From contig DASVCV010000002.1 in NCBI GenBank assembly GCA_036381415.1, positions 20,091 through 84,090 on the forward strand: 64,000 nt of DNA. Direction: 5' to 3'. The notes under the pieces are model-generated. The model had not been told where the DNA came from and did not search any database. It was given only the letters and a program-made list of their open reading frames with translations. Within the stretch, counting starts at the first letter, position 1, and the number at the start of each line of letters is the position of its first letter. Position numbers and translations under genes: made by a program. Shown here piece by piece: positions 21,453 to 61,714 of this stretch. Source of the stretch: Patescibacteria group bacterium (GTDB taxonomy: Bacteria > Patescibacteriota > Microgenomatia > UBA8517).

Positions 21453-22577
21453 TTAGAAAGCCCATTGGCCTTTGACAAAAAGAACGGAGAAATAAAGTAG
21501 AAGACAGGAAAAGATTAATACCAAAGGTATAAACACTATTTTTCTTTTTGAAATTAAAGCAAGAAATATAAACAAGGGAGGGATTGAAAGAAGGTATCTT
21601 GGAGTGCTTAAAAGAAAACTTGTTGAGGTAATAAAAAGGATAGAAAGAATATAATAGACCCAGTCTCTTACTTTTAATTTTTTAATTATGAAAGGAATAA
21701 GAGCAAAACATAGAATGGCAAGTCCCCCTTCAAAAAGACCAAGCATGAGTGAATCATGAGTCAGAGGTATTTTAAGAAATCCTAGACTGTTTTTTATACT
21801 AACCCATGGAAAATCAAGATGTTTGTACCAATGAGTTTCTAGAACTTCTTTAAAAGCAAAGATTTTACCAAACAATAACCAATTAACAGCAAGGTAAGTA
21901 GAAATAGAAATAATGAATGGAATTGTTATCAGAACTGAGAGAAGAATTTTTTTCTTTAAATTAATTTTTTCTAGTAGTAAAGAAACAAAAAGAGTGGGTA
22001 GTGTTATTAAGCCCATTGTTCTTGTTAAAAAGGTCAGTGCTCCCGAAAGAGAGGACTCATACCAATTTTTGTTTTGAGAAAAGAAGAAGCAGGATACTAA
22101 AAGGAAAAAGAATAATGATTCTGTATATCCAATTGAAAAAAAGTATGAAGTCGGAAAAATATTAAGAAGCACAAGAGATTTTAAGGCAGTTTGTTCATCG
22201 TAGTCTTTTTTTACAAGAAGGTAGAATACTAAACTTCCTAGAATGAAGAAGAAATTGGATACTAATAAAGCTGAAGTAAATACGTTTTTAATTAGCAAAT
22301 TAGCAAAGGTTACAATTGCAGGATATAGAGGTGGGAAAACTATGAAGTTTGCTTCATCTCCACTTGTTCCATACCAATGTTGGGTTATATATAAATAGTG
22401 AGGAGTGTCCCATCTGTTCCAGGTAGAGTCCAGAAGGATGGGTTTATGTGTTTGATAGCCAACTATTAAAAGGGGAAGAATAAGAATAACAATTCTTCCT
22501 AATCCTATTAGAAGAGCAATGGAGATAAGTTTATGTTTTTCTGACTGTAGTTTAAGCCTTTGCATTAAATGTCTCAT
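21453..22577 (-). CDS. Polytopic membrane protein, probable GT-C-type glycosyltransferase (DUF2029/GT87-like).
   Basis: 11+ TM helices with a conserved acidic/aromatic first loop (WNRWDTPHYLYI). The fold assignment is inferred. Confidence 0.45.
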   Translation of the reverse strand: MRHLMQRLKLQSEKHKLISIALLIGLGRIVILILPLLIVGYQTHKPILLDSTWNRWDTPHYLYITQHWYGTSGDEANFIVFPPLYPAIVTFANLLIKNVFTSALLVSNFFFILGSLVFYLLVKKDYDEQTALKSLVLLNIFPTSYFFSIGYTESLFFFLLVSCFFFSQNKNWYESSLSGALTFLTRTMGLITLPTLFVSLLLEKINLKKKILLSVLITIPFIISISTYLAVNWLLFGKIFAFKEVLETHWYKHLDFPWVSIKNSLGFLKIPLTHDSLMLGLFEGGLAILCFALIPFIIKKLKVRDWVYYILSILFITSTSFLLSTPRYLLSIPPLFIFLALISKRKIVFIPLVLIFSCLLLYFSVLFVKGQWAF

Positions 22578-25151
22578 GCTTTTATACTAAATTCTATGCT
22601 GGGGAAGAAATTTAAACAACTTATTATTCCCAAGAATCTCATTTTATCAGTTTTATTTGTACTTGGAGTAAGGCTTGCCTTTTCACTTCTTCCTAGTTTT
22701 CAGATAGATATGGGGACTTGGCTTGCATGGGCAGGAAGGCTTCGTGATTTAGGGTTTGATAAATTTTACTCTGACACTGTTTGGACTCAATATACTCCTG
22801 GATATTTGTATTGGCTTTGGGTTATGGGAAAGACAGGTATTATTTCAGAAGTTGCAATTAAACTACCAGTAATACTAGCTGATATTGGAGTGGGAGTAAT
22901 TATTTGGAATCTAGTCAGAAAGGTTGGCAAGAATACTGCACTTGCTGCATTTTTTGCATATACGCTTAATCCTGTTGTGATATTTAACGGATCAGTTTGG
23001 GGACAAATTGATGGGATATTTACTTTGTTTTTATTTTTGGCAGTTTATTTGATTAATGAGAAGAAAAGTGTTGTTTTGGGATGGAGTATGTGGGCAATTG
23101 CATTTTTAATAAAGCCGCAGGCTTTTGCTATTTTGCCTTTTCTAGTTCTAATAACTTTAAAGAAATATACTATTAAACAAATTCTAAAAGCAGGGATAGT
23201 TACCCTTCTTCTAATATTGGCACTTTCTATTCCATTTTTCCCAACCAATCCAATCTTTGGGTTACCAGATCTAATAAATAAAATGAGTCTTTACTATCCT
23301 TATACTTCTGTTTTTGCTTTTAATGTTTGGACTTTGGTTGGAATGTGGAAGGCAGACAGCACTACTTTTTTGGGAATACAGTATTTTTATATTGGAATTG
23401 GGATGTATGCTCTTTCACTGTTGTTTCTTTTTTGGAAATTTAGAAATAAATTGGATGAGCAAAAGATAGTTTATTTAGTTGTTGCACTTTCATGGATTGC
23501 TTTCTTTTTGTTTCCAACAAGAGTTCATGAAAGATATCTTTTCCCAGCATATGCATTTTTAATTACAGGATCAGCTCTTTCTAAATCAAAAGCATTATCT
23601 ATTTTTTATGTAGTACTTTCTTTTTTAAACTTTTTAAATTTATACCATCCATATGCCTACTATGCTCAGAATTATTTGGTTTCCAAATGGTTGCTTGATT
23701 TTACTGGGAGTGCTTCAGTTTCAATTGGAATTGGAACTTTCTTAATCTTTTTGGCAATTTCATTTAGCGAGAGATTTAAATTCTTGGAAAAAATAAATAT
23801 TTTCTCAAAGAAAAATAGACGTACAATAAAAAATGATTCTAAAGCGGGTAGATTAGGGAATATTTTTATGGGAGGTAAGGATTATGTATTGGGAATGAAA
23901 AATTTGGAAGTTAAGAAAGTAAATTTGCCTCATATTAAATTAACTAAAAAACAAATAAATATCCTTTTAGGAGTAGTAATTGCATTTTCTTTTGTAACAC
24001 GAGTATTTATGTTAGCTAATCCACCTCAGGAATATTTTGATGAGGTATATCATGCATTTACTGCAAGGCAAATGCTGCATGGAAATAAAATGGCTTGGGA
24101 GTGGTGGAACACACCCCCTGTTGGGTTTGCATATGAGTGGACACATCCACCTTTAGCTAAAGAAGGAATGGTTTTGGGAATGTTGGTATTTGGAGAAAAT
24201 CCATTTGGATGGAGAATACCTGGAGCACTTTTGGGGGTGGGAAGTGTAATACTTATCTACTTAATTGCCAGAAAACTTTTTGAGGATGATTTGGCAGGAG
24301 TACTTGCAGCAGGAGTATTTAGCTTAGATGGATTACCCCTTGTACTATCTAGGATTGGGATGAATGACAGCTACTTTTTATTTTTTGCGCTGACTTCAAT
24401 TTATTTTTACTTAGATAATAAAAATAGACTATTTAAAAATAGTAATAACTTTTTGGCTGCATTAACATTTGGGTTGTCCCTTGCTTCTAAATGGAGTGCT
24501 TTATGGGCCATTCCTATCTATGTTGCAATACATTTTCTTTTAAAGAGAAAATTAACTATCTCATATCTGTGGTTTTTGGTCTTACCTCCTTTAGTTTATG
24601 TTGCAACCTATATTCCCATGTTTATCAGCGGACATAATTTCTCAATATTTATTGAGATGCAAAAACAGATGTGGTGGTATCACACTAATTTGCGTGCCAC
24701 TCACCCGTACACATCTCCCTGGTGGAGCTGGCCATTTTTAGTCAGGCCAATCTGGCTTTATACAAGCGGAAGATTAGGAGACACTATTTCAAACATCTAT
24801 GCGATGGGGAATCCAGTTGTATTTTGGTTTGGATTAGGGGCAGTTGTTGTAACGGCAGTGAAAGGGTTAATGGAAAGGAGCAAGAAATTAATATTGGTTG
24901 CATTTGCATATTTAATTTTCTTTGTACCTTGGGCACTATCTCCAAGAATAATGTTTTTGTACCACTATCTTCCTTCAATTCCATTTTTGGCAATTGCAAC
25001 TGGGTATGTTTTAAGAAAGCATAAAGAACTCATTGCTCCTGTATTTATTGTAGGACTTGTTACTTTTATTTACTTTTACCCACATTTAATTGCAATGAAA
25101 GTTCCAGTTGTATTTGATTCTTCATACTATTGGTTTGATAGCTGGAGATAA
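22569..25151 (+). CDS. Fused 860-aa membrane glycosyltransferase. N-terminal GT-C/DUF2029-like half, C-terminal PMT (GT39) family protein O-mannosyltransferase-like half.
   Basis: The C-terminal half carries PPQEYFDEVYHAFTARQ (PMT DE motif) and a PMT_2-like distal region. 20+ TM helices overall. Overlaps the divergent GT-C gene start. Confidence 0.65.
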   Translation: MSHAFILNSMLGKKFKQLIIPKNLILSVLFVLGVRLAFSLLPSFQIDMGTWLAWAGRLRDLGFDKFYSDTVWTQYTPGYLYWLWVMGKTGIISEVAIKLPVILADIGVGVIIWNLVRKVGKNTALAAFFAYTLNPVVIFNGSVWGQIDGIFTLFLFLAVYLINEKKSVVLGWSMWAIAFLIKPQAFAILPFLVLITLKKYTIKQILKAGIVTLLLILALSIPFFPTNPIFGLPDLINKMSLYYPYTSVFAFNVWTLVGMWKADSTTFLGIQYFYIGIGMYALSLLFLFWKFRNKLDEQKIVYLVVALSWIAFFLFPTRVHERYLFPAYAFLITGSALSKSKALSIFYVVLSFLNFLNLYHPYAYYAQNYLVSKWLLDFTGSASVSIGIGTFLIFLAISFSERFKFLEKINIFSKKNRRTIKNDSKAGRLGNIFMGGKDYVLGMKNLEVKKVNLPHIKLTKKQINILLGVVIAFSFVTRVFMLANPPQEYFDEVYHAFTARQMLHGNKMAWEWWNTPPVGFAYEWTHPPLAKEGMVLGMLVFGENPFGWRIPGALLGVGSVILIYLIARKLFEDDLAGVLAAGVFSLDGLPLVLSRIGMNDSYFLFFALTSIYFYLDNKNRLFKNSNNFLAALTFGLSLASKWSALWAIPIYVAIHFLLKRKLTISYLWFLVLPPLVYVATYIPMFISGHNFSIFIEMQKQMWWYHTNLRATHPYTSPWWSWPFLVRPIWLYTSGRLGDTISNIYAMGNPVVFWFGLGAVVVTAVKGLMERSKKLILVAFAYLIFFVPWALSPRIMFLYHYLPSIPFLAIATGYVLRKHKELIAPVFIVGLVTFIYFYPHLIAMKVPVVFDSSYYWFDSWR

Positions 25152-25290
25152 TTACTTCTAGAGAGTAAAAGGGAATTAGGGTGGTGGCTTCAACCATTTT
25201 AGTTCTTTTAGTTTGGTAAATACTAAATTTATTGTTCTAGAGGTACAACACAAAATAATTAAGCAAGTCTAAGACTAGTTAATAGAAGTG

Positions 25291-26019
25291 TTAGAGAGCT
25301 AGTATTACTGCTCCTATTAGAAGGACTATACCTCCTGCAATTGCAAGCCAGGTTGGAGTTGATACTCCAGCTTGTGGAAGAGCAGGTGCAGGGGTTGCCA
25401 CTGTTGGTTTTGGTGTTGCAACTACAGTGGGAGTTGGGGTGGCAAGTGCGACAGGCGTAGGTGTTGGAGTTGCGCATACGCAAGTTGTGCTTGTAGTACA
25501 TGATGGGTTTCTACAAACACCTGTAGTTCCAGAAGTTATATAGCAGGTCATTCCAGACTGACAGTTTGCATCAGATCCGCAAGTTCCACCGCATGCATTG
25601 GGTACCCCTGGCGTTGCAGTAGGAGTTGGAGTTGCAGTCGGGGTTGGTGTTGCAGTTCCTGAGGGAGTAGGAGTTGGAGTTGCAGTTGCAGCAGTAATGG
25701 CAAAACTTGTTGTGCAGATACTTGAAGTGGCTGCACATGCACCATTTACGATGTTTTGTCCTGAAGGACAACAATAAACTGTTGAACCATTAGCTGGACT
25801 TATACAAGAAGTAGAGCCTGCAATGCTGGTTGCATTACAATTTAATCCTGCAGCACATTGTTCTGCTGCTCCAGGTTTACTGGTGGGTGCAGTTGGTGCA
25901 ACTGATTCTTGTCTTAACTGATATAGCCTTAAAGCAGTAAATACTGCAATTCCTGCAAGAATTACAGTTGCTCCTAGTATTAATATTGTTACTAAATTTT
26001 TCTTTACAAATGCTTGCAT
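25291..26019 (-). CDS. Cys-rich, Pro/Thr-linker-rich surface protein B2. N-terminal signal-anchor, C-terminal LPQAG sorting signal plus hydrophobic tail.
   Basis: N-terminus MQAFVKKNLVTILILGATVILAGIAVF. 22 Cys, (TPTP)n linkers, an 8-Cys module NACGGTCGSDANCQSGMTCYITSGTTGVCRNPSCTTSTTCVCA. C-terminus LPQAGVSTPTWLAIAGGIVLLIGAVILAL. Confidence 0.6.
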   Translation of the reverse strand: MQAFVKKNLVTILILGATVILAGIAVFTALRLYQLRQESVAPTAPTSKPGAAEQCAAGLNCNATSIAGSTSCISPANGSTVYCCPSGQNIVNGACAATSSICTTSFAITAATATPTPTPSGTATPTPTATPTPTATPGVPNACGGTCGSDANCQSGMTCYITSGTTGVCRNPSCTTSTTCVCATPTPTPVALATPTPTVVATPKPTVATPAPALPQAGVSTPTWLAIAGGIVLLIGAVILAL

Positions 26020-26023
26020 ATTA

Positions 26024-27520
26024 TTAGAACCATTGGTTTAGAACTTGATGATGTAATTGTCCTGAAACTGTGAAATTGGTGATATTTGTTGGTATTGTGT
26101 ATTCTTCATAGAAATCAGCACTGCTTGGACGCTTAGTGGCTACTTCAGGTTGCAAGGTTCCATTAATAGTGAATCTTGCTTTATCAAATACTCCAGAGGT
26201 TGTTGTACCTGTAAGTGTAAAGCGTATTTTATCTCCTGGTTTTAAAGCCGAAAGCTGAGTTGTGGTTAGAGGATTCCAGTTAGTGTCATAAATTTGTATT
26301 CCAGTGCATGTTGCGGTTGGAGTTGGACCACAGGCTTGTTGTACTTCAGCAGCGGTTGGGTTTGCTCCTGATGAGTTAAGAACATATGAGTTTCCTTGGT
26401 CACGAGCAACGCAGTTATTTGTTGTCCATCCAGTAGGAAGTGTGTCTGGGACGCAATATGTGGTGTTGTTTGTCCCTGTTCCTACTGTACAACTTGGTCC
26501 AACTATGTATCTACAAACTGAGCCTGTTTGACAAAGGCCAAGAGATGCACTGCATGGATTTCCACAGGCATTTAGGCTACTGCAGTCGCAGTTTCTTCCA
26601 GGAATGGTTTTTCCAATACAGCTTGCATTTTGACAGATCCCTGCAACGCATGTAACAGTTCCACCATTTCCTGCAGCAGCGCAGTCACTTGTTTGAGTAC
26701 ATGCCTGTCCACAGGTTGGTTTAGGAGTGGGAGTAGGTGCTGATCCACCTGCACAAGTTGAAGGATTCCAAACACATGCTCCTTGGGGATTTCTTTGACA
26801 TTCCGAGCCTCTTTCTCCTACACCTGCTTCAACACAAGAGCAGCTTCCGCAAGCTCCCCATCCTGGCTGGATTGTTGGAGCTGGGGCTGTTGAACTTGTT
26901 GGAGTAGGTGAAGGTGGGACATAACCGCTTGTGCTACATTGTCCAGATGTAGCTGCGGGACAACCAGACTGGCATCCACAAGAGCTGTTTTGGGATACAC
27001 AATTTACAGTTCCGTCAGAATTGTAGAAACAATTATCGCATTTGTTTGCATTGAATTTATCTCCACATCCAGCAAATCCTCCAGGAGTGTTGTTTGATGC
27101 TCCGCCACAGGCGTCAAGTCTAACACAAGGTCCGTAAGTGTTGTTTGCTTGGCATACTACTCCTGTTCCAGCTCCATTACATTCAATACAGGATTGTTCA
27201 CCTGGGTTAACACATGATGCTCCTGGTGCTGCGCCTCCACCAGCTGCCTTCTGTTTAAAAATTTGCTGTTGTTGAACTAGGAGTAGTCCTGCTCCAACTC
27301 CTACTACTAAGAGAACTAGTCCAAGAATGGTTGGAATGAGTGCCCTTCTTCTGGGTGACGGTGGGGCAAAGTCTGTTTGTGGTGGAGTTGTAATGTTAGT
27401 GTCAGCTGGTCCTCCTGCACCTGTTTCAGGAGGAGTTTCTGTTGGAAAAGTTGGATTTGTCCCTGGGTCACTTGGCGCGATTGTGTTGGTGGAATTTTGA
27501 GGGCTGGTATTATCTTGCAT
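26024..27520 (-). CDS. Large Cys-rich surface protein A2. N-terminal Pro/Thr-rich segment plus signal-anchor, about 45 Cys, and a conserved C-terminal beta-rich domain.
   Basis: PRRRALIPTILGLVLLVVGVGAGLLLV anchor. Many CxC / CxxC disulfide-type spacings. The C-terminal IYDTNWNPLTTTQLSALKPGDKIRFTLTGTTTSGVFDKARFTINGT domain is shared with the 28342..30033 ORF. Confidence 0.6.
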   Translation of the reverse strand: MQDNTSPQNSTNTIAPSDPGTNPTFPTETPPETGAGGPADTNITTPPQTDFAPPSPRRRALIPTILGLVLLVVGVGAGLLLVQQQQIFKQKAAGGGAAPGASCVNPGEQSCIECNGAGTGVVCQANNTYGPCVRLDACGGASNNTPGGFAGCGDKFNANKCDNCFYNSDGTVNCVSQNSSCGCQSGCPAATSGQCSTSGYVPPSPTPTSSTAPAPTIQPGWGACGSCSCVEAGVGERGSECQRNPQGACVWNPSTCAGGSAPTPTPKPTCGQACTQTSDCAAAGNGGTVTCVAGICQNASCIGKTIPGRNCDCSSLNACGNPCSASLGLCQTGSVCRYIVGPSCTVGTGTNNTTYCVPDTLPTGWTTNNCVARDQGNSYVLNSSGANPTAAEVQQACGPTPTATCTGIQIYDTNWNPLTTTQLSALKPGDKIRFTLTGTTTSGVFDKARFTINGTLQPEVATKRPSSADFYEEYTIPTNITNFTVSGQLHHQVLNQWF

Positions 27521-27597
27521 TTAATTTTTTATGAATATGAAGCTAGTCATTTCTAGCCCTATACCCATCATAGAAAGAGCTAGAGCTGGTGTCAAGT
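27521..27597 (-). pseudogene. Remnant copy of the 3' end (sorting-signal-encoding tail) of the 30045..31382 gene. It marks the junction of the tandem duplication.
   Basis: Translates to ...LTPALALSMMGIGLEMTSFIFIKN*, cf. ...DLTPTLALSMMGIGLVVTSFILWKKLEI* at the true gene end. About 70 nt of DNA are near-identical to 30069..30130. Confidence 0.55.
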
Positions 27598-27615
27598 AAA
27601 TTGTTTGTAAATTCT

Positions 27616-28332
27616 TTAGAGAGCAAGTATTACTGCTCCTATTAGAAGGACTATACCTCCTGCAATTGCAAGCCAGGTTGGAGTTGATACTCCAGCTTGG
27701 GGAAGAGCAGGTGCAGGGGTTGCAACTGTTGGTGTAGGAGTTGCAACTGCAATAGGTGTAGGAGTTGGGGTTGGTGTTGCACATACGCAAGTTGTGCTTG
27801 TAGTACATGATGGGTTTCTACATACTCCTGTAGTTCCAGAAGTTATATAACAGGTCATTCCAGATTGACAGTTTGCATCAGATCCGCAAGTTCCATTACA
27901 TGCATTTGGTGCTCCAGGTGTTGGAGTAGGAGTGGGTGTAGGAGTTGGAGTTGGTGTAGGTGTAGCTGTTGCACAAACACAGTTTGAGTTTGATGCACAG
28001 GATGGATTTACACAGATGTTGTTTCCAGATACTGTTTGGCAAGTTAGACCAGTTGGACAATTTGATTGACCACCTGGAGTAGTACAAGCTTCATAGCATT
28101 GAGGTACTGGTGTAGGAGTAGGAGTTGGTGTTTCAGCAGTAAGTGTAAAGGACAGTGCTTGGCAAGCAGGGTTTACTTGAGCACCTGGATTACTAGTAGG
28201 AGCAGCAGGAGAAACAGACTCTTGTCTTAACTGATATAGCCTTAAAGCAGTAAATACTGCAATTCCAGCAAGTATTACAGTTGCTCCTAGTATTAATATT
28301 GTTACTAAATTTTTCTTTACAAATGCTTGCAT
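27616..28332 (-). CDS. Cys-rich, Pro/Thr-linker-rich surface protein B1 (paralog of B2). Two copies of the 8-Cys module and an LPQAG sorting signal.
   Basis: N-terminal 40 aa and C-terminal about 95 aa are identical or near-identical to B2. The first domain is replaced by a second 8-Cys module (CYEACTTPGGQSNCPTGLTCQTVSGNNICVNPSCASNSNCVCA). Confidence 0.6.
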   Translation of the reverse strand: MQAFVKKNLVTILILGATVILAGIAVFTALRLYQLRQESVSPAAPTSNPGAQVNPACQALSFTLTAETPTPTPTPVPQCYEACTTPGGQSNCPTGLTCQTVSGNNICVNPSCASNSNCVCATATPTPTPTPTPTPTPTPGAPNACNGTCGSDANCQSGMTCYITSGTTGVCRNPSCTTSTTCVCATPTPTPTPIAVATPTPTVATPAPALPQAGVSTPTWLAIAGGIVLLIGAVILAL

Positions 28333-28341
28333 ATTATTTTT

Positions 28342-30033
28342 TTAATTCCATGTATTTAACGCTGCATGGTGAATTTGTGCTGTTACTGTGAAACTTGTTA
28401 CACCTACTGGAATTGTGTACTCATCATAGAACTCTTGAGTTGCTGCTGGTTTGGTTGTTGTTACTTCTGGTCTTAAGGTTCCATTAATAGTAAATCTTGC
28501 TTTATCAAATACTCCAGATGTGGTTGTTCCAGTTACAGTAAATCTAACCTTGTCTCCTGCTTTAAGAGCTGATAATTGAGTGGTTGTAAGCAGATTCCAG
28601 TTTGTGTCATATGCTTTTACAGCCTGACATTGTGCAGTGGAAGGAGCGGTTGATCCAGGAGGGTTGGTTGGTGTTGTTCCTCCACCAGTAGTTGGAGTAG
28701 TTGGTGCTTCAATGGTGCCAGCTGGTGCGGCGCAGGACTGGCGGTCGGCATCGTATGAACAAGATATGGTTCCATTGTTGCAGAAGCAGTCGTAATTGCT
28801 TGGTTGGTTGTAATGGTCACCGCAACCTGCAAATCCTCCACTGCCGACTGTGCGGCCATCATATACTCTACATGTGTTGCCAGTAGTTGGGGGAGTGCTC
28901 CCATTACAAGTGTGTGTTGTTTCGTTACAATCACCGCTTAAACAACTTGTGTCGTATATACAAGTTGCTCCGTCTGGCCTGTTGCCGATCTCACCGCAGC
29001 GGTCTGTACGGATACAATCCCATTGACCAAGAGCGTTACAGTATGCTTGTTGAGTTGGACCTGCGCCTCCTGCTGGTTCTCCGTTTGCACCACTACAGTC
29101 TCCGCAAGCTTTTCTGTCTCCTGTGGTACATACTCTTCCTGTAGCATTTGAATAACCTCCGCAGGCTATTAATGTACCAGCGTTGCCGTAGCAGACTTTC
29201 TGTCCGGATTTAACTGTTCCTGCAATACAGGTAATACAATGAAGTGGACTTGAGCAGTTTGCATCTGAGGTACAAGTATCGCCTTCCCCACCTGTTGTTG
29301 TGCCTCCTGGAGTTGTACCTCCGCCGCTGGTGGTTGCAGTTGGACAGCTTTCACCTGCTGGACAACATCTACCTAGATAGCTTCCATTAGATTGTTGACA
29401 ACCTGCACCTGGATATACATAAGTCCATCCTGTAGCTGGGCATTGTCCACGATCAGAACCACTTGATCCAGTACACCAAGCACCTGCAGGAGCCGTTGGT
29501 TGAGTTCCTCCACTACTTGGTTGAGAACACATGCCAAGAGTGTTGCTGCATCCAACTGCAGATCCTCCACCACCTGAACAGTTCCAGTTGTAGTTTCCAG
29601 GACATTCTCCTCTATTACCTACTCTACAATCTCCAGTACACCAGCCGCCTGCTCTTTGATTTAGAAGCTGTTGTCTTTGAGTAAGTGCTAATCCTGCTCC
29701 AACTCCTACTACTAAAAGAACTAATCCAAGAATTGTTGGAATGAGTGCCCTTCTTCTTGGTGAAGGAGGGGCAAAGTCTGTTTGTGGCGGGGTTGAAATT
29801 CCAGAATCAGGTGGAACTCCTCCTCCATTGCCTGTATCTTGTGGTGTTTCTGTTGGGAAGGTTGGACTTGTATCTGCTGGTTGAGTGGTAGTTGTGGTTG
29901 TTGTTTCTGTAACTGTTACAGGTGGTACAGATAATGGCTGGTCTGTAAGAGTTGGTGGAGTACTCGTACTTTGATCAGTAGGAAATGTAGGATTAGTAGA
30001 AGTATTTTGTTGATTTAGAGTACTATCTTGCAT
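28342..30033 (-). CDS. Large Cys-rich surface protein A1 (paralog of A2).
   Basis: Same N-terminal anchor (PRRRALIPTILGLVLLVVGVGAGLAL) and C-terminal domain as A2. A different Cys-rich central region of about 50 Cys, and a longer poly-Thr N-terminal segment. Confidence 0.6.
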   Translation of the reverse strand: MQDSTLNQQNTSTNPTFPTDQSTSTPPTLTDQPLSVPPVTVTETTTTTTTQPADTSPTFPTETPQDTGNGGGVPPDSGISTPPQTDFAPPSPRRRALIPTILGLVLLVVGVGAGLALTQRQQLLNQRAGGWCTGDCRVGNRGECPGNYNWNCSGGGGSAVGCSNTLGMCSQPSSGGTQPTAPAGAWCTGSSGSDRGQCPATGWTYVYPGAGCQQSNGSYLGRCCPAGESCPTATTSGGGTTPGGTTTGGEGDTCTSDANCSSPLHCITCIAGTVKSGQKVCYGNAGTLIACGGYSNATGRVCTTGDRKACGDCSGANGEPAGGAGPTQQAYCNALGQWDCIRTDRCGEIGNRPDGATCIYDTSCLSGDCNETTHTCNGSTPPTTGNTCRVYDGRTVGSGGFAGCGDHYNQPSNYDCFCNNGTISCSYDADRQSCAAPAGTIEAPTTPTTGGGTTPTNPPGSTAPSTAQCQAVKAYDTNWNLLTTTQLSALKAGDKVRFTVTGTTTSGVFDKARFTINGTLRPEVTTTKPAATQEFYDEYTIPVGVTSFTVTAQIHHAALNTWN

Positions 30034-30044
30034 CTTTTATTTTT

Positions 30045-31382
30045 TTATATTTCTAACTTTTTCCAAAGTATGAAGCTAGTCACTACTAGCCCTATACCCA
30101 TCATAGAAAGAGCTAGAGTAGGAGTCAAGTCACCAGACACTGGAATGGCACTCCCCGTGGCTGGAAGAGTAATTCTTGTTGTCCCAGATGTTGTTGAAAC
30201 AGGGGTTGGAGTTGGTGTTGGAATGGGAGTGGGTGTTGGAATAGGTGTAGCAGAACCAGATGCAACAAAAGCTGGTCCTTCAGAAGCTTGAACAACAAAT
30301 GTTTTTGTTAAGGTTTGCAGAATTCCTTGGGCGTCTGTCCAGGAAACTGAAAGAGTGTGAGTTCCTGGATCTAGATTTGCAGGTGGATTCCAGGTCCAGG
30401 TTCCATCAGCAGCAGCTGTAACTGTTGCCGTTTGGGGAGTGGACCTGACAGTAATAGTAATTTTTGTATTAGGAGTGGCAGTTCCCATGATTTGAGGTTT
30501 AGCAGTGGAAATTATTTCGCCATCTTTGATACTTGTAACGGTTACAGTTTTTGTTGTTCCTGAGGTTGTAGCAGTATTTCCTAAGTTAAAACCTGCTGAT
30601 GAAGTTGCTGTGTCAGGCAAATTAAGATTTGATTGAGGATTTCCTCCTTCGGTGTTACCAGGATTACTTCTAAAATCATATGTTTGTCCAAGTTTGATAA
30701 CAGGAGTTGGGTTGGCTGATTTAGGATAGATTTGAGCAGTTGAGACTCCACTTACTCCACCTTGAACAAAAATTTGAAGAAGAGTGGAGTCTGGGGAAAT
30801 AGTTGCATAACTTGTGAGATCTGGTTTAAGTGCAGTGCTAATTGGAATTACCCAATTACCGTTAGCTGAAGTTAAGGCAGACATTGGGTTAAATCCAGTT
30901 CCATTTACATAGACCAGAACTTCTGGAGCTGGAAGGCCACCTGCATCTTCAACTGTTCCTGATATCAAGATCTGAGTAGGAAGAGTGGATGTTGTTTGTG
31001 AGGCAGTTTGGGTGTTCCAAGGGATTCCTGAGTTGTCATAATCAGAGCCAGCTGAATTAATTTTAAAATAGTAGGGAGTTGATGGACTTAAGGTAGTTAC
31101 TTGGACCCAATGAATGGTGGTAGCAGTTTGGGAAGCAAGTGTTGTCTGGCTTAAACTGTCTTGACTTACCCCATATTTGACATATCCAACGGTTGGTTTG
31201 TCAGTAATCCAAGAAATTGCAAAAGAAGAGGAAGATTGGTTTGTTATTCTTACATCTTGGGGTGCAACATCAGGAGAAGCACCAAGCTTAAATTGCTTGG
31301 ATGTTGCAACAAGAAAAATACCTGCTCCCATACCAAGTACAAGAACTAGTATTCCTATTAGTGTTGGGATTTTCCCTCTCAT
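30045..31382 (-). CDS. LPXTG-anchored multi-domain surface protein (Fn3-like, CarboxypepD_reg-like and Ig-like domains, PT-rich stalk).
   Basis: N-terminal signal MRGKIPTLIGILVLVLGMGAGIFLV. Fn3-like region SFAISWITDKPTVGYVKYG...YYFKINSAG. Ig-like region DGTWTWNPPANLDPGTHTLSVSWTD. (PTPTPIPTPTPTP) stalk. C-terminal LPATG plus hydrophobic segment plus KKLEI, a canonical sortase signal. Confidence 0.65.
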   Translation of the reverse strand: MRGKIPTLIGILVLVLGMGAGIFLVATSKQFKLGASPDVAPQDVRITNQSSSSFAISWITDKPTVGYVKYGVSQDSLSQTTLASQTATTIHWVQVTTLSPSTPYYFKINSAGSDYDNSGIPWNTQTASQTTSTLPTQILISGTVEDAGGLPAPEVLVYVNGTGFNPMSALTSANGNWVIPISTALKPDLTSYATISPDSTLLQIFVQGGVSGVSTAQIYPKSANPTPVIKLGQTYDFRSNPGNTEGGNPQSNLNLPDTATSSAGFNLGNTATTSGTTKTVTVTSIKDGEIISTAKPQIMGTATPNTKITITVRSTPQTATVTAAADGTWTWNPPANLDPGTHTLSVSWTDAQGILQTLTKTFVVQASEGPAFVASGSATPIPTPTPIPTPTPTPVSTTSGTTRITLPATGSAIPVSGDLTPTLALSMMGIGLVVTSFILWKKLEI

Positions 31383-31717
31383 GGCGTGGTTCCTCCTGGA
31401 GTTGCTGACTGACTGGCAATTGGAGTTGCTGACTCACTTGCAACGGGTGTTGCAACAGGTGTTGGGGTAGGAAGAGTGGATGCAGTAACGGTATTATTTC
31501 CGATCTGGTCATCACTAAGGTACATTCTTTGTTGTAATTTATTTAGAGCAGCTACGTCAAGAGTGGGATTTAAGGGTGCAACAATTTCAGCAGGTACTGG
31601 GGGAGAAGGCTTTATAGTTAGGGTTCTATAAACCTCAAAAGCAATCCAGAAAAAGATTGTGATTAGGGTAATTATTGCAAGAGTTACTCCTGCTGGTGTT
31701 TTTATTCCTCTTTTCAT
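31379..31717 (-). CDS. Membrane-anchored Pro/Thr-rich protein co-transcribed with pilN/pilO. Possible pilus-associated component.
   Basis: 112 aa: N-terminal TM (MKRGIKTPAGVTLAIITLITIFFWIAF), then a PT/ATP-rich low-complexity tail. ATGA start/stop overlaps with both neighbouring genes. Confidence 0.45.
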   Translation of the reverse strand: MKRGIKTPAGVTLAIITLITIFFWIAFEVYRTLTIKPSPPVPAEIVAPLNPTLDVAALNKLQQRMYLSDDQIGNNTVTASTLPTPTPVATPVASESATPIASQSATPGGTTP

Positions 31718-32379
31718 TTTGTTTGGGCTGTTTGAGCTTCCTGGTAAGGGGCTCTTCCTTCTATGGTTAGATATAAATTTTTAACATTATCAATTTCTGT
31801 TGCAGTAAAATTTAGACTGTCAAAGACAAGAGGACGTCTTAAAAGTTCAATATCTGCAAGGAATGTTGAGATGGTGTTGTAGTCGCCTGCTACTGAAATA
31901 GATACTCCAACCCCTGAACTTCCTTGCGGAAGAGTTTTTCTTTGATCAGGGGGACCTGCAAGAACAGGGGAAGTCCCTGCAAGAGTTATTTGTTCACTTC
32001 CTATGTTTTGAGTAACAACATTATCTTTTTTAATTACTCCTTCAATTTGGCGGATGTATTGACCAAGAGATGGAGATGTGGGAACTGCATCAGAAAGAAG
32101 AGCAATATTTGCCTGTTGGGATGCAAGAATACTCTGAGCTTGCTGAAGGTTTAGGATTTTAGCATCCATTTGTTCTATGGTTTTTTGCTTTTCATTAATT
32201 TCTGTTAAGAGGTTAGAGATGGTAAGGGCAGTTGGCTTAATGGCAAAGATTGAAAAAAGGCCAATAGTAACTATGGAAAGTAGAAGCTCAAGAAAGGCTT
32301 TTAAGTCTGGCCTTCTTTTGTAAAGAGCCATTAAGTTAAATAGATACTGTTGTCCTCTAAAGTAGCTTTTAGGTCCCAT
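31714..32379 (-). CDS. pilO: Type IV pilus assembly protein PilO.
   Basis: Basic N-terminus plus one TM and a coiled coil. C-terminal ISVAGDYNTISTFLADIELLRRPLVFDSLNF is similar to the PilO core. Start uncertain: 32379 or 32331, while the ORF track gives 32484. Confidence 0.65.
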   Translation of the reverse strand: MGPKSYFRGQQYLFNLMALYKRRPDLKAFLELLLSIVTIGLFSIFAIKPTALTISNLLTEINEKQKTIEQMDAKILNLQQAQSILASQQANIALLSDAVPTSPSLGQYIRQIEGVIKKDNVVTQNIGSEQITLAGTSPVLAGPPDQRKTLPQGSSGVGVSISVAGDYNTISTFLADIELLRRPLVFDSLNFTATEIDNVKNLYLTIEGRAPYQEAQTAQTK

Positions 32380-32953
32380 TTGGTTTAGGCGTAGCTGCCA
32401 CTCCTTTCTGTGTAGCAAGAACTTGGAAAGTGATATTGCCTGTTGTTTGGTCAATTGTGGTTTGAGTAAGAGATACTTTATCAAACATATTTGGGATTGC
32501 TTTTAAGTTTGCAATAAATGTACCTGCTCCAACTTCTGAGGTGGAAGTTGCTCTAATTTCAACTGCAGATGCATCTACTGAAAGAAATGTTATTTGGACA
32601 GTATCAGGAAGAGCAGTTGTTAGGGTTTGAAGAAGAGGAATGTATTTGCTTTTGTCATATGCAACAGAAGAGAAAATGGCTAACTCTTTTTGAGCTTCTC
32701 TAAAGTTCTTTTCAACTTGGGCATATGAGGTAATAACTGCCTTTTTTTGATTTATAGCTTCTGTTAGGTCGCTTACTTTGGAGTCAAGCCAGAATCTAGA
32801 GAGAAATGCTCCCATTACGACCATTTCAGTTGCAATGACAATGAGCCTAAATGAAGAAATAAGCCATCTAAAAATTCTTCCTAGAGTGGATGATTCGAAC
32901 TCTTCTTGTGGAAGAAGATTGATCCTTGGTTCTTTAGTGTTGCGGGCAGCCAT
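32369..32953 (-). CDS. pilN: Type IV pilus assembly protein PilN.
   Basis: The hallmark N-terminal INLLP motif (PRINLLPQEE), a single TM, a coiled coil and a C-terminal ALPDTVQITFLSVDASAVEIRATS region. Confidence 0.75.
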   Translation of the reverse strand: MAARNTKEPRINLLPQEEFESSTLGRIFRWLISSFRLIVIATEMVVMGAFLSRFWLDSKVSDLTEAINQKKAVITSYAQVEKNFREAQKELAIFSSVAYDKSKYIPLLQTLTTALPDTVQITFLSVDASAVEIRATSTSEVGAGTFIANLKAIPNMFDKVSLTQTTIDQTTGNITFQVLATQKGVAATPKPNGT

Positions 32954-58784: not shown

Positions 58785-61031
58785 ATGGAAGAACATTTTT
58801 GGTCTTTAGCTCTTGAAACCGGCTGGGTGCAGGCGGCTATTTGGACGATTAAAGAAAAAGAAGCACATGTTGTTGCAGTTTCAAATGCAGTTGCTTGGGA
58901 AAGTGATGAAGACTTACTTAGTGCCTGTGACACAGTTCTTTCTTCCATAGTTTCAGGACTAGCTGAAAATGCAAAGGAACCTTCTAAGACTGTATTTGGT
59001 GTTCCACCTGGATGGGTAGGAGAAGGGCAAATTAAAAAAGAATATTTAGATAGAATTAGAAATATATGCCACAAATTATCTCTTGAACCTTCTGGGTTTG
59101 TAGTACTGCCTGAAGCTATTGCTCATTTCAAAAAATCTGAAGAGAATGCACCTGTTTCTGGAGTAATTGTTGGAGTAGGAACAGATGCATTAGATATTAC
59201 TGTTGTTAGACTTGGAACAATTATTGGAACAGTTAATGTGGGAAGAAGTTTGTCTGTTTTAGATGATGTTGTTGAAGGAATTGCAAGGTTTGGGGGGGCA
59301 GAGCCATTTCCTTCAAGATTTTTAATATATGATGGGAAGAGTGCTGAATTGGAAGATGTAAGGCAGGAACTTATAAAAGCGGATTGGACAGGTGAGCTTA
59401 AAACAAAAGCTAAGTTTCTTCATACTCCACAGGTGGAAATAGTTGATCCAAAAATGAAAATGGTTGCAGTGAGTCTAGCTGGAGCTAGTGAAATAGGGCA
59501 GGCAAATGTGGTTACTTTTGATTTGGGAGAAGAAAAGGCTGAAAAACTAAAAGAGGAAAAGCCAGAAATAAAAGTAGAACAACCTAAAGAGGATTTGAGT
59601 TCTCATGAGAATTTGAGTGAGGTGGCAAAAGCTACTGATTTTGGTTTTGTAATGGATCAAGATATAAATGAAGTTGCAGGTGCAACAAATCCTAACCCAG
59701 TTCAGACTTCAGCCAATACTCCTAGTTTTGTAACTTCTCCTCATCCAGTTTCTAACCCTTTTCCTCGTAATCCAATTAGTAAAATCAAGCATAATATAGT
59801 AAGGTTACCTTTGATTTTAAGCGGAGCTTGGCCGCTTTCAGCGGTGAAAGGAAAAATGGATCAAAGAAATAAAATTAGCATGCCTGGTGGAGAAGCTAGA
59901 AAGAAAATGCCTATTATTTTGGCAATAGCTGGGGCAGCTCTTTTGATATTTGGATTTATTGGATGGTGGTTTTTACCAAAAGCTGAAGTGACTATTTTTG
60001 TTTCTCCAAAAAAGATTGAACAAAAGCAGCTTATAACATACGATCCAAAACTTACTGATCCTGATATTTCAAAAAGACAACTTCCTATTTCAACTGTTTC
60101 CACTTCAGTAAGTGGAGATAAGACAAAATCTACAACTGGGACTTTAACTATTGGGGATAGGGCAAAGGGATCAGTTGTTATTAGAAATGGAGGATCAGAT
60201 GATATTGGTCTTACAGCTGGAACAATTTTAACAGGACCAAATAGTCTTAAATTTAGTCTTGATAATGGAGCTTCTGTTTCTGCTGCAACATCCCCATCAA
60301 ATCCTGGAACTGCAACAATTTCTGTAACAGCTTCTGGGATTGGAGCAGAATACAATTTGGCTAAGGGAGAAACACTTCAGGTGGGGAATTTTTCAAAAAG
60401 CCAGGTGGATGCTTTAGTGGATTCAGATTTTTCAGGTGGGTCAAGCCAGGAAGTGGTTGCAGTTTCCAAAGATGATTTATCAGTTTTGCAGAAAGATTTA
60501 ACTAGTGAATTGACTGAAAAAGCTCAAAACCAATTAAAGGAAAAACTTGGGGATGATGAGATACTGCTTGATCCTGCTACGATTGCAACAGCTTCTGGAA
60601 TAACTTATGATCATGTTGCAGGGGATCAGGCTTCAACACTTAAACTTAGTGAGAACTTAAGCCTTACCAGTTATGTAGTTTCAAAAAAGAATTTAGGGAA
60701 TTTGGCTAGGGATATTGTAAAAGGACAGGTGCCTAATGGGTTTGTTGTTAAGGATGATCAGATAAGTACTAATTTTGATACAAAATTGGGATTAGTTGAT
60801 GGAGTGTGGAAGCTAGATACTACATTTAATGTTAATTTGTTACCACAGATTAATACTGATGATATTGCTAAAAAAATTGCAGGCAAATCTCAAAAAGCAG
60901 CGCAAGAAATATTATCTAGGATAGCAGGTTATGTGAGAGCTGAGATACACCTGACAAAAGGTTTTCCCAGCTTTGGTACTTTACCTCATGTTGTTAAAAA
61001 TATTTCTGTTGAGTTGTCCTCAGAAAAATGA
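58785..61031 (+). CDS. Bitopic protein: N-terminal actin-like (ASKHA, PilM/GspL-cytoplasmic-domain-like, degenerate) domain, one TM, and a about 340-aa extracytoplasmic Thr/Ser-rich beta domain.
   Basis: SLALETGWVQA and VIVGVGTDALDITVVRLGTIIG resemble the phosphate-1 and phosphate-2 regions of the actin fold with substitutions. TM at about aa 385-405. ATGA overlap with the sortase gene. Confidence 0.45.
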   Translation: MEEHFWSLALETGWVQAAIWTIKEKEAHVVAVSNAVAWESDEDLLSACDTVLSSIVSGLAENAKEPSKTVFGVPPGWVGEGQIKKEYLDRIRNICHKLSLEPSGFVVLPEAIAHFKKSEENAPVSGVIVGVGTDALDITVVRLGTIIGTVNVGRSLSVLDDVVEGIARFGGAEPFPSRFLIYDGKSAELEDVRQELIKADWTGELKTKAKFLHTPQVEIVDPKMKMVAVSLAGASEIGQANVVTFDLGEEKAEKLKEEKPEIKVEQPKEDLSSHENLSEVAKATDFGFVMDQDINEVAGATNPNPVQTSANTPSFVTSPHPVSNPFPRNPISKIKHNIVRLPLILSGAWPLSAVKGKMDQRNKISMPGGEARKKMPIILAIAGAALLIFGFIGWWFLPKAEVTIFVSPKKIEQKQLITYDPKLTDPDISKRQLPISTVSTSVSGDKTKSTTGTLTIGDRAKGSVVIRNGGSDDIGLTAGTILTGPNSLKFSLDNGASVSAATSPSNPGTATISVTASGIGAEYNLAKGETLQVGNFSKSQVDALVDSDFSGGSSQEVVAVSKDDLSVLQKDLTSELTEKAQNQLKEKLGDDEILLDPATIATASGITYDHVAGDQASTLKLSENLSLTSYVVSKKNLGNLARDIVKGQVPNGFVVKDDQISTNFDTKLGLVDGVWKLDTTFNVNLLPQINTDDIAKKIAGKSQKAAQEILSRIAGYVRAEIHLTKGFPSFGTLPHVVKNISVELSSEK

Positions 61032-61714
61032 GAAGTAGTTTCTTCGTAAAAATACTAGCTATTGCTTGTGGAATAGGTGGAGTTGGAATTTTGGCTTGGG
61101 TTTTTTTACCAATCTTTTTTTATGAGTTTACTGCACCACCACTAATGTCTTATCTATCTCCACTTCCTGATAACACTCAAGCTGCAAATAGTACTAACGG
61201 AAGCTTTGATGATACTAAGGCAAGCAACTGGTTTGTGGGATCTAATCCATCTGATTTTAAAAAAGGAAGTGTTACTTTTTATAACTTATCAATTCCGAGA
61301 TTAGGAATTTCTGATGCTGTAGTTGCAGTTGGAGGAGAGGATTTATCACAATCTTTAATTCAATATCCTGGAACTGCCTTACCAGGCAGACCTGGGAATG
61401 CTACAATTTTTGGACATTCGGTACTTCCTCAGTTTTATAGTGCTACAAACTATCTAACTATTTTTTCAGACTTACCTAGCTTACAAAAGGGAGATGGAAT
61501 AAGTATAAGATCTGATGGAATAAGTTATGAATATAGAGTGGAGGAAAAATTTGAAGTACTACCTACTGATGTGCAAGTGCTAGAGCAAAATTTAAGTGAT
61601 TCATTTTTAACTTTGGTTACTTGTGTTCCACCTGGAGATCCAAGACGTCCAAGAAGGCTTATAATAAGGGCAAGGATTGTTCCTTTGCAAAATACAAATA
61701 CGGGACAGAATTAA
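61028..61714 (+). CDS. Sortase (transpeptidase) family protein.
   Basis: N-terminal TM. TIFGHSV (catalytic His), LTLVTCVPPG (TLxTC catalytic Cys) and a downstream Arg-rich region (DPRRPRR). Confidence 0.8.
   Translation: MRSSFFVKILAIACGIGGVGILAWVFLPIFFYEFTAPPLMSYLSPLPDNTQAANSTNGSFDDTKASNWFVGSNPSDFKKGSVTFYNLSIPRLGISDAVVAVGGEDLSQSLIQYPGTALPGRPGNATIFGHSVLPQFYSATNYLTIFSDLPSLQKGDGISIRSDGISYEYRVEEKFEVLPTDVQVLEQNLSDSFLTLVTCVPPGDPRRPRRLIIRARIVPLQNTNTGQN

Follow-up and report, generated by a model that had tools for sequence, protein, structure and literature searches.

The DNA analysed here, a 64-kb stretch of a Woesebacteria (candidate phyla radiation, CPR) MAG contig referred to below as the window, carries a tandem duplication of a two-gene surface cassette, in which the gene for a large Cys-rich protein (A) is followed by that for a small one (B); the reading favoured here, to which a probability of about 0.65 is given, is that the doubling is lineage-specific and that gene conversion and the import of a divergent allele made a mosaic of it. 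The A-B tandem duplication itself is real. The two adjacent units that a preliminary description had placed at 25283..27597 and 27608..30130, with B 4-9 nt after A, are confirmed from the open reading frames, all on the minus strand, the A-B intergenic gaps being 4 nt in unit 1 and 9 nt in unit 2; along that strand the order is U445 tail, A2, B2, 18-nt junction, 77-nt U445-tail relic, A1 and B1. The features are as follows.

22569..25151 (+), protein O-mannosyltransferase (PMT) gene, convergent and directly downstream of the cassette (Pfam PMT, PMT_4TMC)
25291..26019 (-), B1, 242 aa, 15 Cys (ORF; module comparison)
25291..25599 (-), homogenised tract 2, paired with 27616-27906 (blastn, alignment, dS)
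25900..26027 (-), homogenised tract 1, paired with about 28213-28340 (alignment)
26024..27520 (-), A1, 498 aa, 37 Cys (ORF; C-terminal-domain tree, dS, AF2)
27521..27597 (-), U445 3'-tail relic, 77 nt (blastn, alignment, promoter scan)
27598..27615 (-), duplication junction, 18 nt, unique (sequence and alignment)
27616..28332 (-), B2, 238 aa, 17 Cys (ORF; comparison with L005)
28342..30033 (-), A2, 563 aa, 35 Cys (ORF; comparison with L003 and L005)
30054..30130 (-), left end of unit 2, the U445 3' tail (blastn, 87% to 27522-27597)
30045..31382 (-), U445, upstream surface protein (ORF and translation; Pfam Big_13, Pur_ac_phosph_N, fn3)
31379..32953 (-), upstream operon genes, with synteny in nearly all relatives: a small bitopic protein of 112 aa (31379-31717), a PilO-like gene (31714-32484; Pfam PilO, E 2e-4) and the PilN gene (32369-32953; Pfam PilN, E 6e-7)
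61028..61714 (+), sortase gene (Pfam Sortase, E 2.1e-24; TLVTC catalytic motif in the translation)

The units had been said to combine near-identical gene ends with wholly different Cys-rich centres. Indeed, blastn of unit 1 against unit 2 gives matches at the ends only; in a forced alignment the cores are 45-51% identical at the nucleotide level, which is chance level, and a profile-profile comparison of the two units' cores yielded no real match. Divergence is not uniform, and the sharp boundaries described earlier are found on both sides of B, where identity passes from 60-73% to about 98% at 8 nt before the start codon and drops sharply directly past the stop codon. The near-identity of the ends holds for B, at 94-97% of nucleotides (first ~125 nt, 96%; 3' Cys module, 94%; LPQAG-TM-stop segment, 97%), not for A, whose anchor block is 86% identical, the pre-TM region 69% and the C-terminal domain 70% (69% at the amino acid level).

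The B ends fall in two tracts. Tract 1 runs from the B ribosome-site region ~117 nt into the coding sequence, breaks off abruptly at the A stop codon and carries two mismatches, both synonymous; tract 2 comprises the B 3' Cys module, the PT linker (with an 18-nt indel) and the LPQAG-TM-stop segment, ends at the stop codon and is 92% identical overall, with a dS of 0.25 vs about 1.0 to orthologs. Between units, dS is 0.25 in the B 3' end, 0.36 in the B 5' end, 0.81 in the A TM region and 1.26 in the A C-terminal domain, that is, about 4-fold apart between B ends and A ends (Fisher p=3.7e-7; ortholog control p=1.0). Because dS is 0.25-0.36 in the B ends and 0.8-1.3 in the A ends, the history of the locus is a mosaic one, with gene conversion or recombination; the B ends of both units have been homogenised by intragenomic recombination, the converted tracts still being at dS 0.07-0.25 between units.

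The duplication unit begins within the 3' end of the upstream gene U445, the last ~77 nt of which were co-duplicated; the resulting relic, which separates B2 from A1 and is 85-87% identical to 30054-30130, marks the duplication junction. The relic, which would encode ..LTPALALSMMGIGLEMTSFIFIKN followed by a stop and is now the 5' flank of A1, has diverged from the intact U-tail and is truncated: it stops prematurely, and a charged residue stands in what was once the TM segment; a 33-nt block is identical to the intact U445 tail, and the mismatches to that tail are clustered (p=8e-4). A promoter scan gave a sigma70-like match, TTGACT-17-TATGAT, at 30128-30100 in the U445 tail, and TTGACA-17-TATGAT at 27595-27567 in the relic, 5' of A1; selection on this promoter-like element, rather than young age, may be why the relic is still 85% identical. 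Neither the U445-tail origin of the unit start nor the relic figured in the preliminary description.

The cassette belongs to a conserved operon, rpsT-pilN-pilO-x-U-A-B, convergent with PMT: B starts at most 200 nt from the A stop in 97 of 103 loci, PilN/O lie upstream of A in 49 of 53, and a convergent PMT is found downstream in 25 of 45, all close relatives included; U445 orthologs occupy the same position in relatives, none above 84% identity being present in databases. The adjacency of PilN/PilO, a matter of gene order, may not imply a functional link to pili. Neither A nor B is a pilin, a class III signal being absent from both. As to the earlier statement that no homologs of A or B are known, curated families are indeed missing (no Pfam or NCBIfam match); metagenome homologs, however, are abundant, with 41 word-indexed homologs of A, 1397 clusters matched by the A C-terminal domain at 50% identity, and more than 231 homologs of B. 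Almost all of the approximately 100 related loci carry one A-B pair, and the ten close-relative loci examined have a single pair each and in no case the relic; tandem arrays with the same pattern occur independently at L080 and L034, such arrays including an A-B-A-B one in an unrelated 142-kb JGI contig. Because the single-copy orthologs at about 100 other loci show it too, the pattern of conserved ends and divergent cores is the normal evolution and modular architecture of the family, and is not peculiar to this duplicate.

U445 has an N-terminal TM anchor, fn3/Ig-like domains and a C-terminal LPATG with hydrophobic segment and WKK, which by its motifs is a classical sortase sorting signal. 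A2 is laid out as a PT-rich N-terminal tail, an RRR + TM anchor, a Cys-rich core (aa 132-465) and an Ig-like C-terminal domain (aa 466-563; nt 28345-28638); A1 has the same anchor, a variable Cys region (aa 96-257), a conserved Cys-rich stretch of ~140 aa called module X (aa 258-400; nt 26321-26749) and an Ig-like C-terminal domain (aa 401-498; nt 26027-26320), AF2 giving pLDDT >90 for aa ~260-498. No sorting signal was found in A. The 8-Cys module mentioned earlier, C-x3-C-x5/8-C-x5-C-x8/9-C-x4-C-x5-C-x-C, is present in B, once in B1 (nt 25474-25593) and twice in B2 (nt 27973-28098 and 27781-27900; AF2 pLDDT ~90), where PT linkers join the modules between an N-terminal TM helix and a C-terminal LPQAG + hydrophobic segment; B1 has ends like those of B2 and a distinct 7-Cys core module (aa 55-105), which recurs in the A proteins of the distant loci L031 and L032. 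LPx[A/S]G+TM is conserved in B orthologs. The Cys counts first given, 45-50 for A and 20-22 for B, were overstated: A1 and A2 have 37 and 35, B1 and B2 have 15 and 17. Within a core type selection is purifying, as in the comparison of A2 with L003 (dN/dS 0.14, some stretches remaining 90-95% identical where dS is saturated); for B2, dN/dS is 0.11, and values of 0.5-0.85 are reached in parts of the membrane-proximal region. A and B are best read, from their sequence features and context, as sortase-/membrane-anchored, disulfide-rich, probably O-glycosylated surface proteins.

The descent of the two units differs. A2+B2 is collinear with L003 (71.3% over 1853 nt, flanks 71.7%), B2 is 77.7% identical to L005 over 1103 nt, and the A2 C-terminal domain is at dS 0.73 to L005, that of A1 being saturated against L002; in an NJ tree of the A C-terminal domain, A1 groups with L002 (bootstrap 83%) and A2 with L005 and L003 (86%). 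These alignments and the tree identify unit 2 as the vertical copy, ortholog of the relatives' single-copy A-B, and assign the A1 C-terminal domain to a different, much older allele lineage. No homogenisation is seen between the C-terminal domains of A1 and A2; each groups with another genome's single-copy gene. The GC3 of A and B is like that of the neighbour genes, with no foreign codon signature. Flank dS from the window genome to L002/L005 is 0.7-1.1; L002 and L005 have flanks 88% identical to each other (dS 0.2-0.3), unalignable A cores and a saturated A C-terminal dS. The A2 core is 71% identical to that of the distant L003 and 30% to that of the close L005, an order reversed in the C-terminal domain (83% to L003, 93% to L005); module X in A1 matches distant genomes at 62-70% identity and L002 at 45%, and L114 has it joined to an A2-like C-terminal domain. 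Such comparisons support the view that cores have been swapped between conserved ends over evolutionary time and that modules are also exchanged between A and B. The gene conversion or cassette shuffling first proposed is partly supported, by the mosaic dS and by core swaps between genomes, but not for the A C-terminal domains.

An ancient tandem duplication, in which the clade ancestor had both A-B units and other sampled lineages lost either, appears unlikely. It agrees with the divergence of the A1 and A2 C-terminal domains before the split from L002, L005 and L003, with an A1-like gene kept in L002 and A2-like ones in L005 and L003, and with the tandem arrays of at least one other lineage (L080); the gene conversion by which it would keep the B ends alike in the window genome, and perhaps also the U-tail relic, is required under any scenario. 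It nevertheless demands several independent and precise losses, the close-relative loci all having a single pair and no relic, and a non-coding 77-nt relic at 85% over dS >1.2 is implausible unless selected or converted; moreover, L002 and L005 have different core types at a flank dS of 0.2-0.3, for which allele replacement is simpler, and modules reassort independently of C-terminal domain type. That an assembler concatenated two co-occurring strains, one allele each of a hypervariable locus, is very improbable: the locus is hypervariable between close relatives, GCA_040960765.1 having two syntenic contigs with different alleles, and the tandem order is known from one MAG contig, the short Logan contigs that carry A1 and A2, which come from the same run, both ending inside the repeated flanks; yet the unique junction (B2 stop, 18 nt, diverged truncated U-tail) does not resemble a bubble mis-join of intact alleles, the sequences past the B1 and B2 stop codons diverge at once, from the first base on, the relic upstream of A1 is seen again in an independent Logan contig, and the 142-kb JGI contig holds an analogous array.

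The preliminary description had likened the locus to antigenic or adhesin variation systems, and the units might then be partners in high-frequency gene conversion or cassette switching within the population. Unalignable cores between conserved flanks with sharp boundaries, the converted B ends and the occurrence of surface proteins in a bacterial group whose cultivated members, according to PMC11623550, all live cell-attached would suit such a programme, which is nonetheless highly unlikely: both copies are full-length, each has a start of its own, and the same promoter-like element precedes both; no silent truncated donor and no further full or partial cassette is present elsewhere in the 64 kb; neither recombinase, invertase nor RT was found among the scanned ORFs; the dS of 0.07-0.25 in the converted tracts means that conversion is rare; the single cassette of about 100 related loci has no donor; and purifying selection acts on cores of the same type. 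Diversity-generating retroelements (DGRs), common in CPR genomes, are a known route to hypervariable surface proteins, and the dN/dS of 0.5-0.85 noted above could be taken as a sign of positive selection; a DGR, or plain point-mutational drift or positive selection, as the source of the divergent cores without recombination is practically negligible, being contradicted by module sharing and phylogenetic incongruence. Neither an RT gene among the scanned ORFs nor a template/variable repeat pair was found; beyond substitutions, the cores are of unequal length and are built from different modules, the same types of module turn up in distant genomes and in the partner gene, and adjacent segments have incongruent phylogenies.

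Mosaic surface genes or loci arising by inter-strain homologous recombination are known from pneumococcal pspA/pspC and from 'replacement' flexible genomic islands. The A-B locus shares with them a fixed chromosomal position, exposed cores that are non-homologous or deeply divergent between closely related genomes, conserved anchoring/signal ends that act as homology arms, linkers rich in proline where modules meet, and adjacent segments whose phylogenies are incongruent; unlike pspA/pspC, A and B belong to other, uncharacterised families, their domains are disulfide-rich mini-modules unusual for bacteria, and two allele types stand in tandem in one genome, that of an uncultivated Woesebacteria host. 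In Neisseria pilE/pilS, too, variable segments lie between conserved ends, with gene conversion between copies and pilus-machinery genes nearby, but here a silent truncated donor repertoire is lacking, both A-B copies being complete and probably expressed, and conversion homogenised the conserved ends instead of varying the core. The LPXTG surface proteins of Gram-positives have in common with this locus an N-terminal hydrophobic signal/anchor, a C-terminal LPxxG + hydrophobic segment and a sortase, here encoded in the window; B departs from them in its LPx[A/S]G, without charged tail and just under the cut-off of the curated model (TIGR01167 score 14.0 vs 15.9), and A in having no sorting signal. 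VARTIG of Thermococcales is likewise a conserved gene module around an Ig-domain surface protein with one hypervariable region, apparently through inter-genome recombination (Makarova et al. 2021, PMC8416519); VARTIG, however, varies the C-terminal Ig domain and downstream genes, whereas A varies the Cys-rich middle and conserves the Ig-like C-terminus, has no sequence relationship to it and shows no polymorphic-toxin-like organisation. By description, the large extracellular proteins of Peribacteria, also a CPR lineage, are comparable to A/B in being very Cys-rich; much larger, at 1655 aa on average, they have a proposed attachment role and noted strain variation and weakly resemble Cys-rich repeats of Myxococcus (Anantharaman et al. 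2016, PMC4736985), and no association in an operon with PilN/O, PMT or B-type partners was described for them.

On the favoured reading of a lineage-specific doubling, the most likely order of events begins, once the lineage had separated from that of L002/L005, with an unequal or illegitimate recombination that formed the array and carried along the last 77 nt of U445; import of a divergent allele and gene conversion would then have given the present mosaic. Strong purifying selection acts on the B ends as well as on the anchor and the C-terminal domain, and all of these double as homology arms, between which exposed modules are exchanged among lineages and also between A and B genes, the repeats coding for the PT linkers probably being the joints. 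At the surface, A would display, from its N-terminal membrane anchor, a stack of disulfide-rich modules capped by the conserved Ig-like domain, and B would carry small, knot-like 8-Cys modules on PT-rich linkers ending in the LPx[A/S]G sortase-type signal; the linkers may be O-mannosylated by the adjacent PMT, a candidate for this task, and U and B may be processed by the window's sortase at LPATG (U445) and LPQAG (B). The locus clearly exemplifies a mode of surface-gene evolution that was to be expected, namely recombinational diversification over evolutionary time as opposed to programmed switching, and the doubling would allow a cell to show two surface variants simultaneously.

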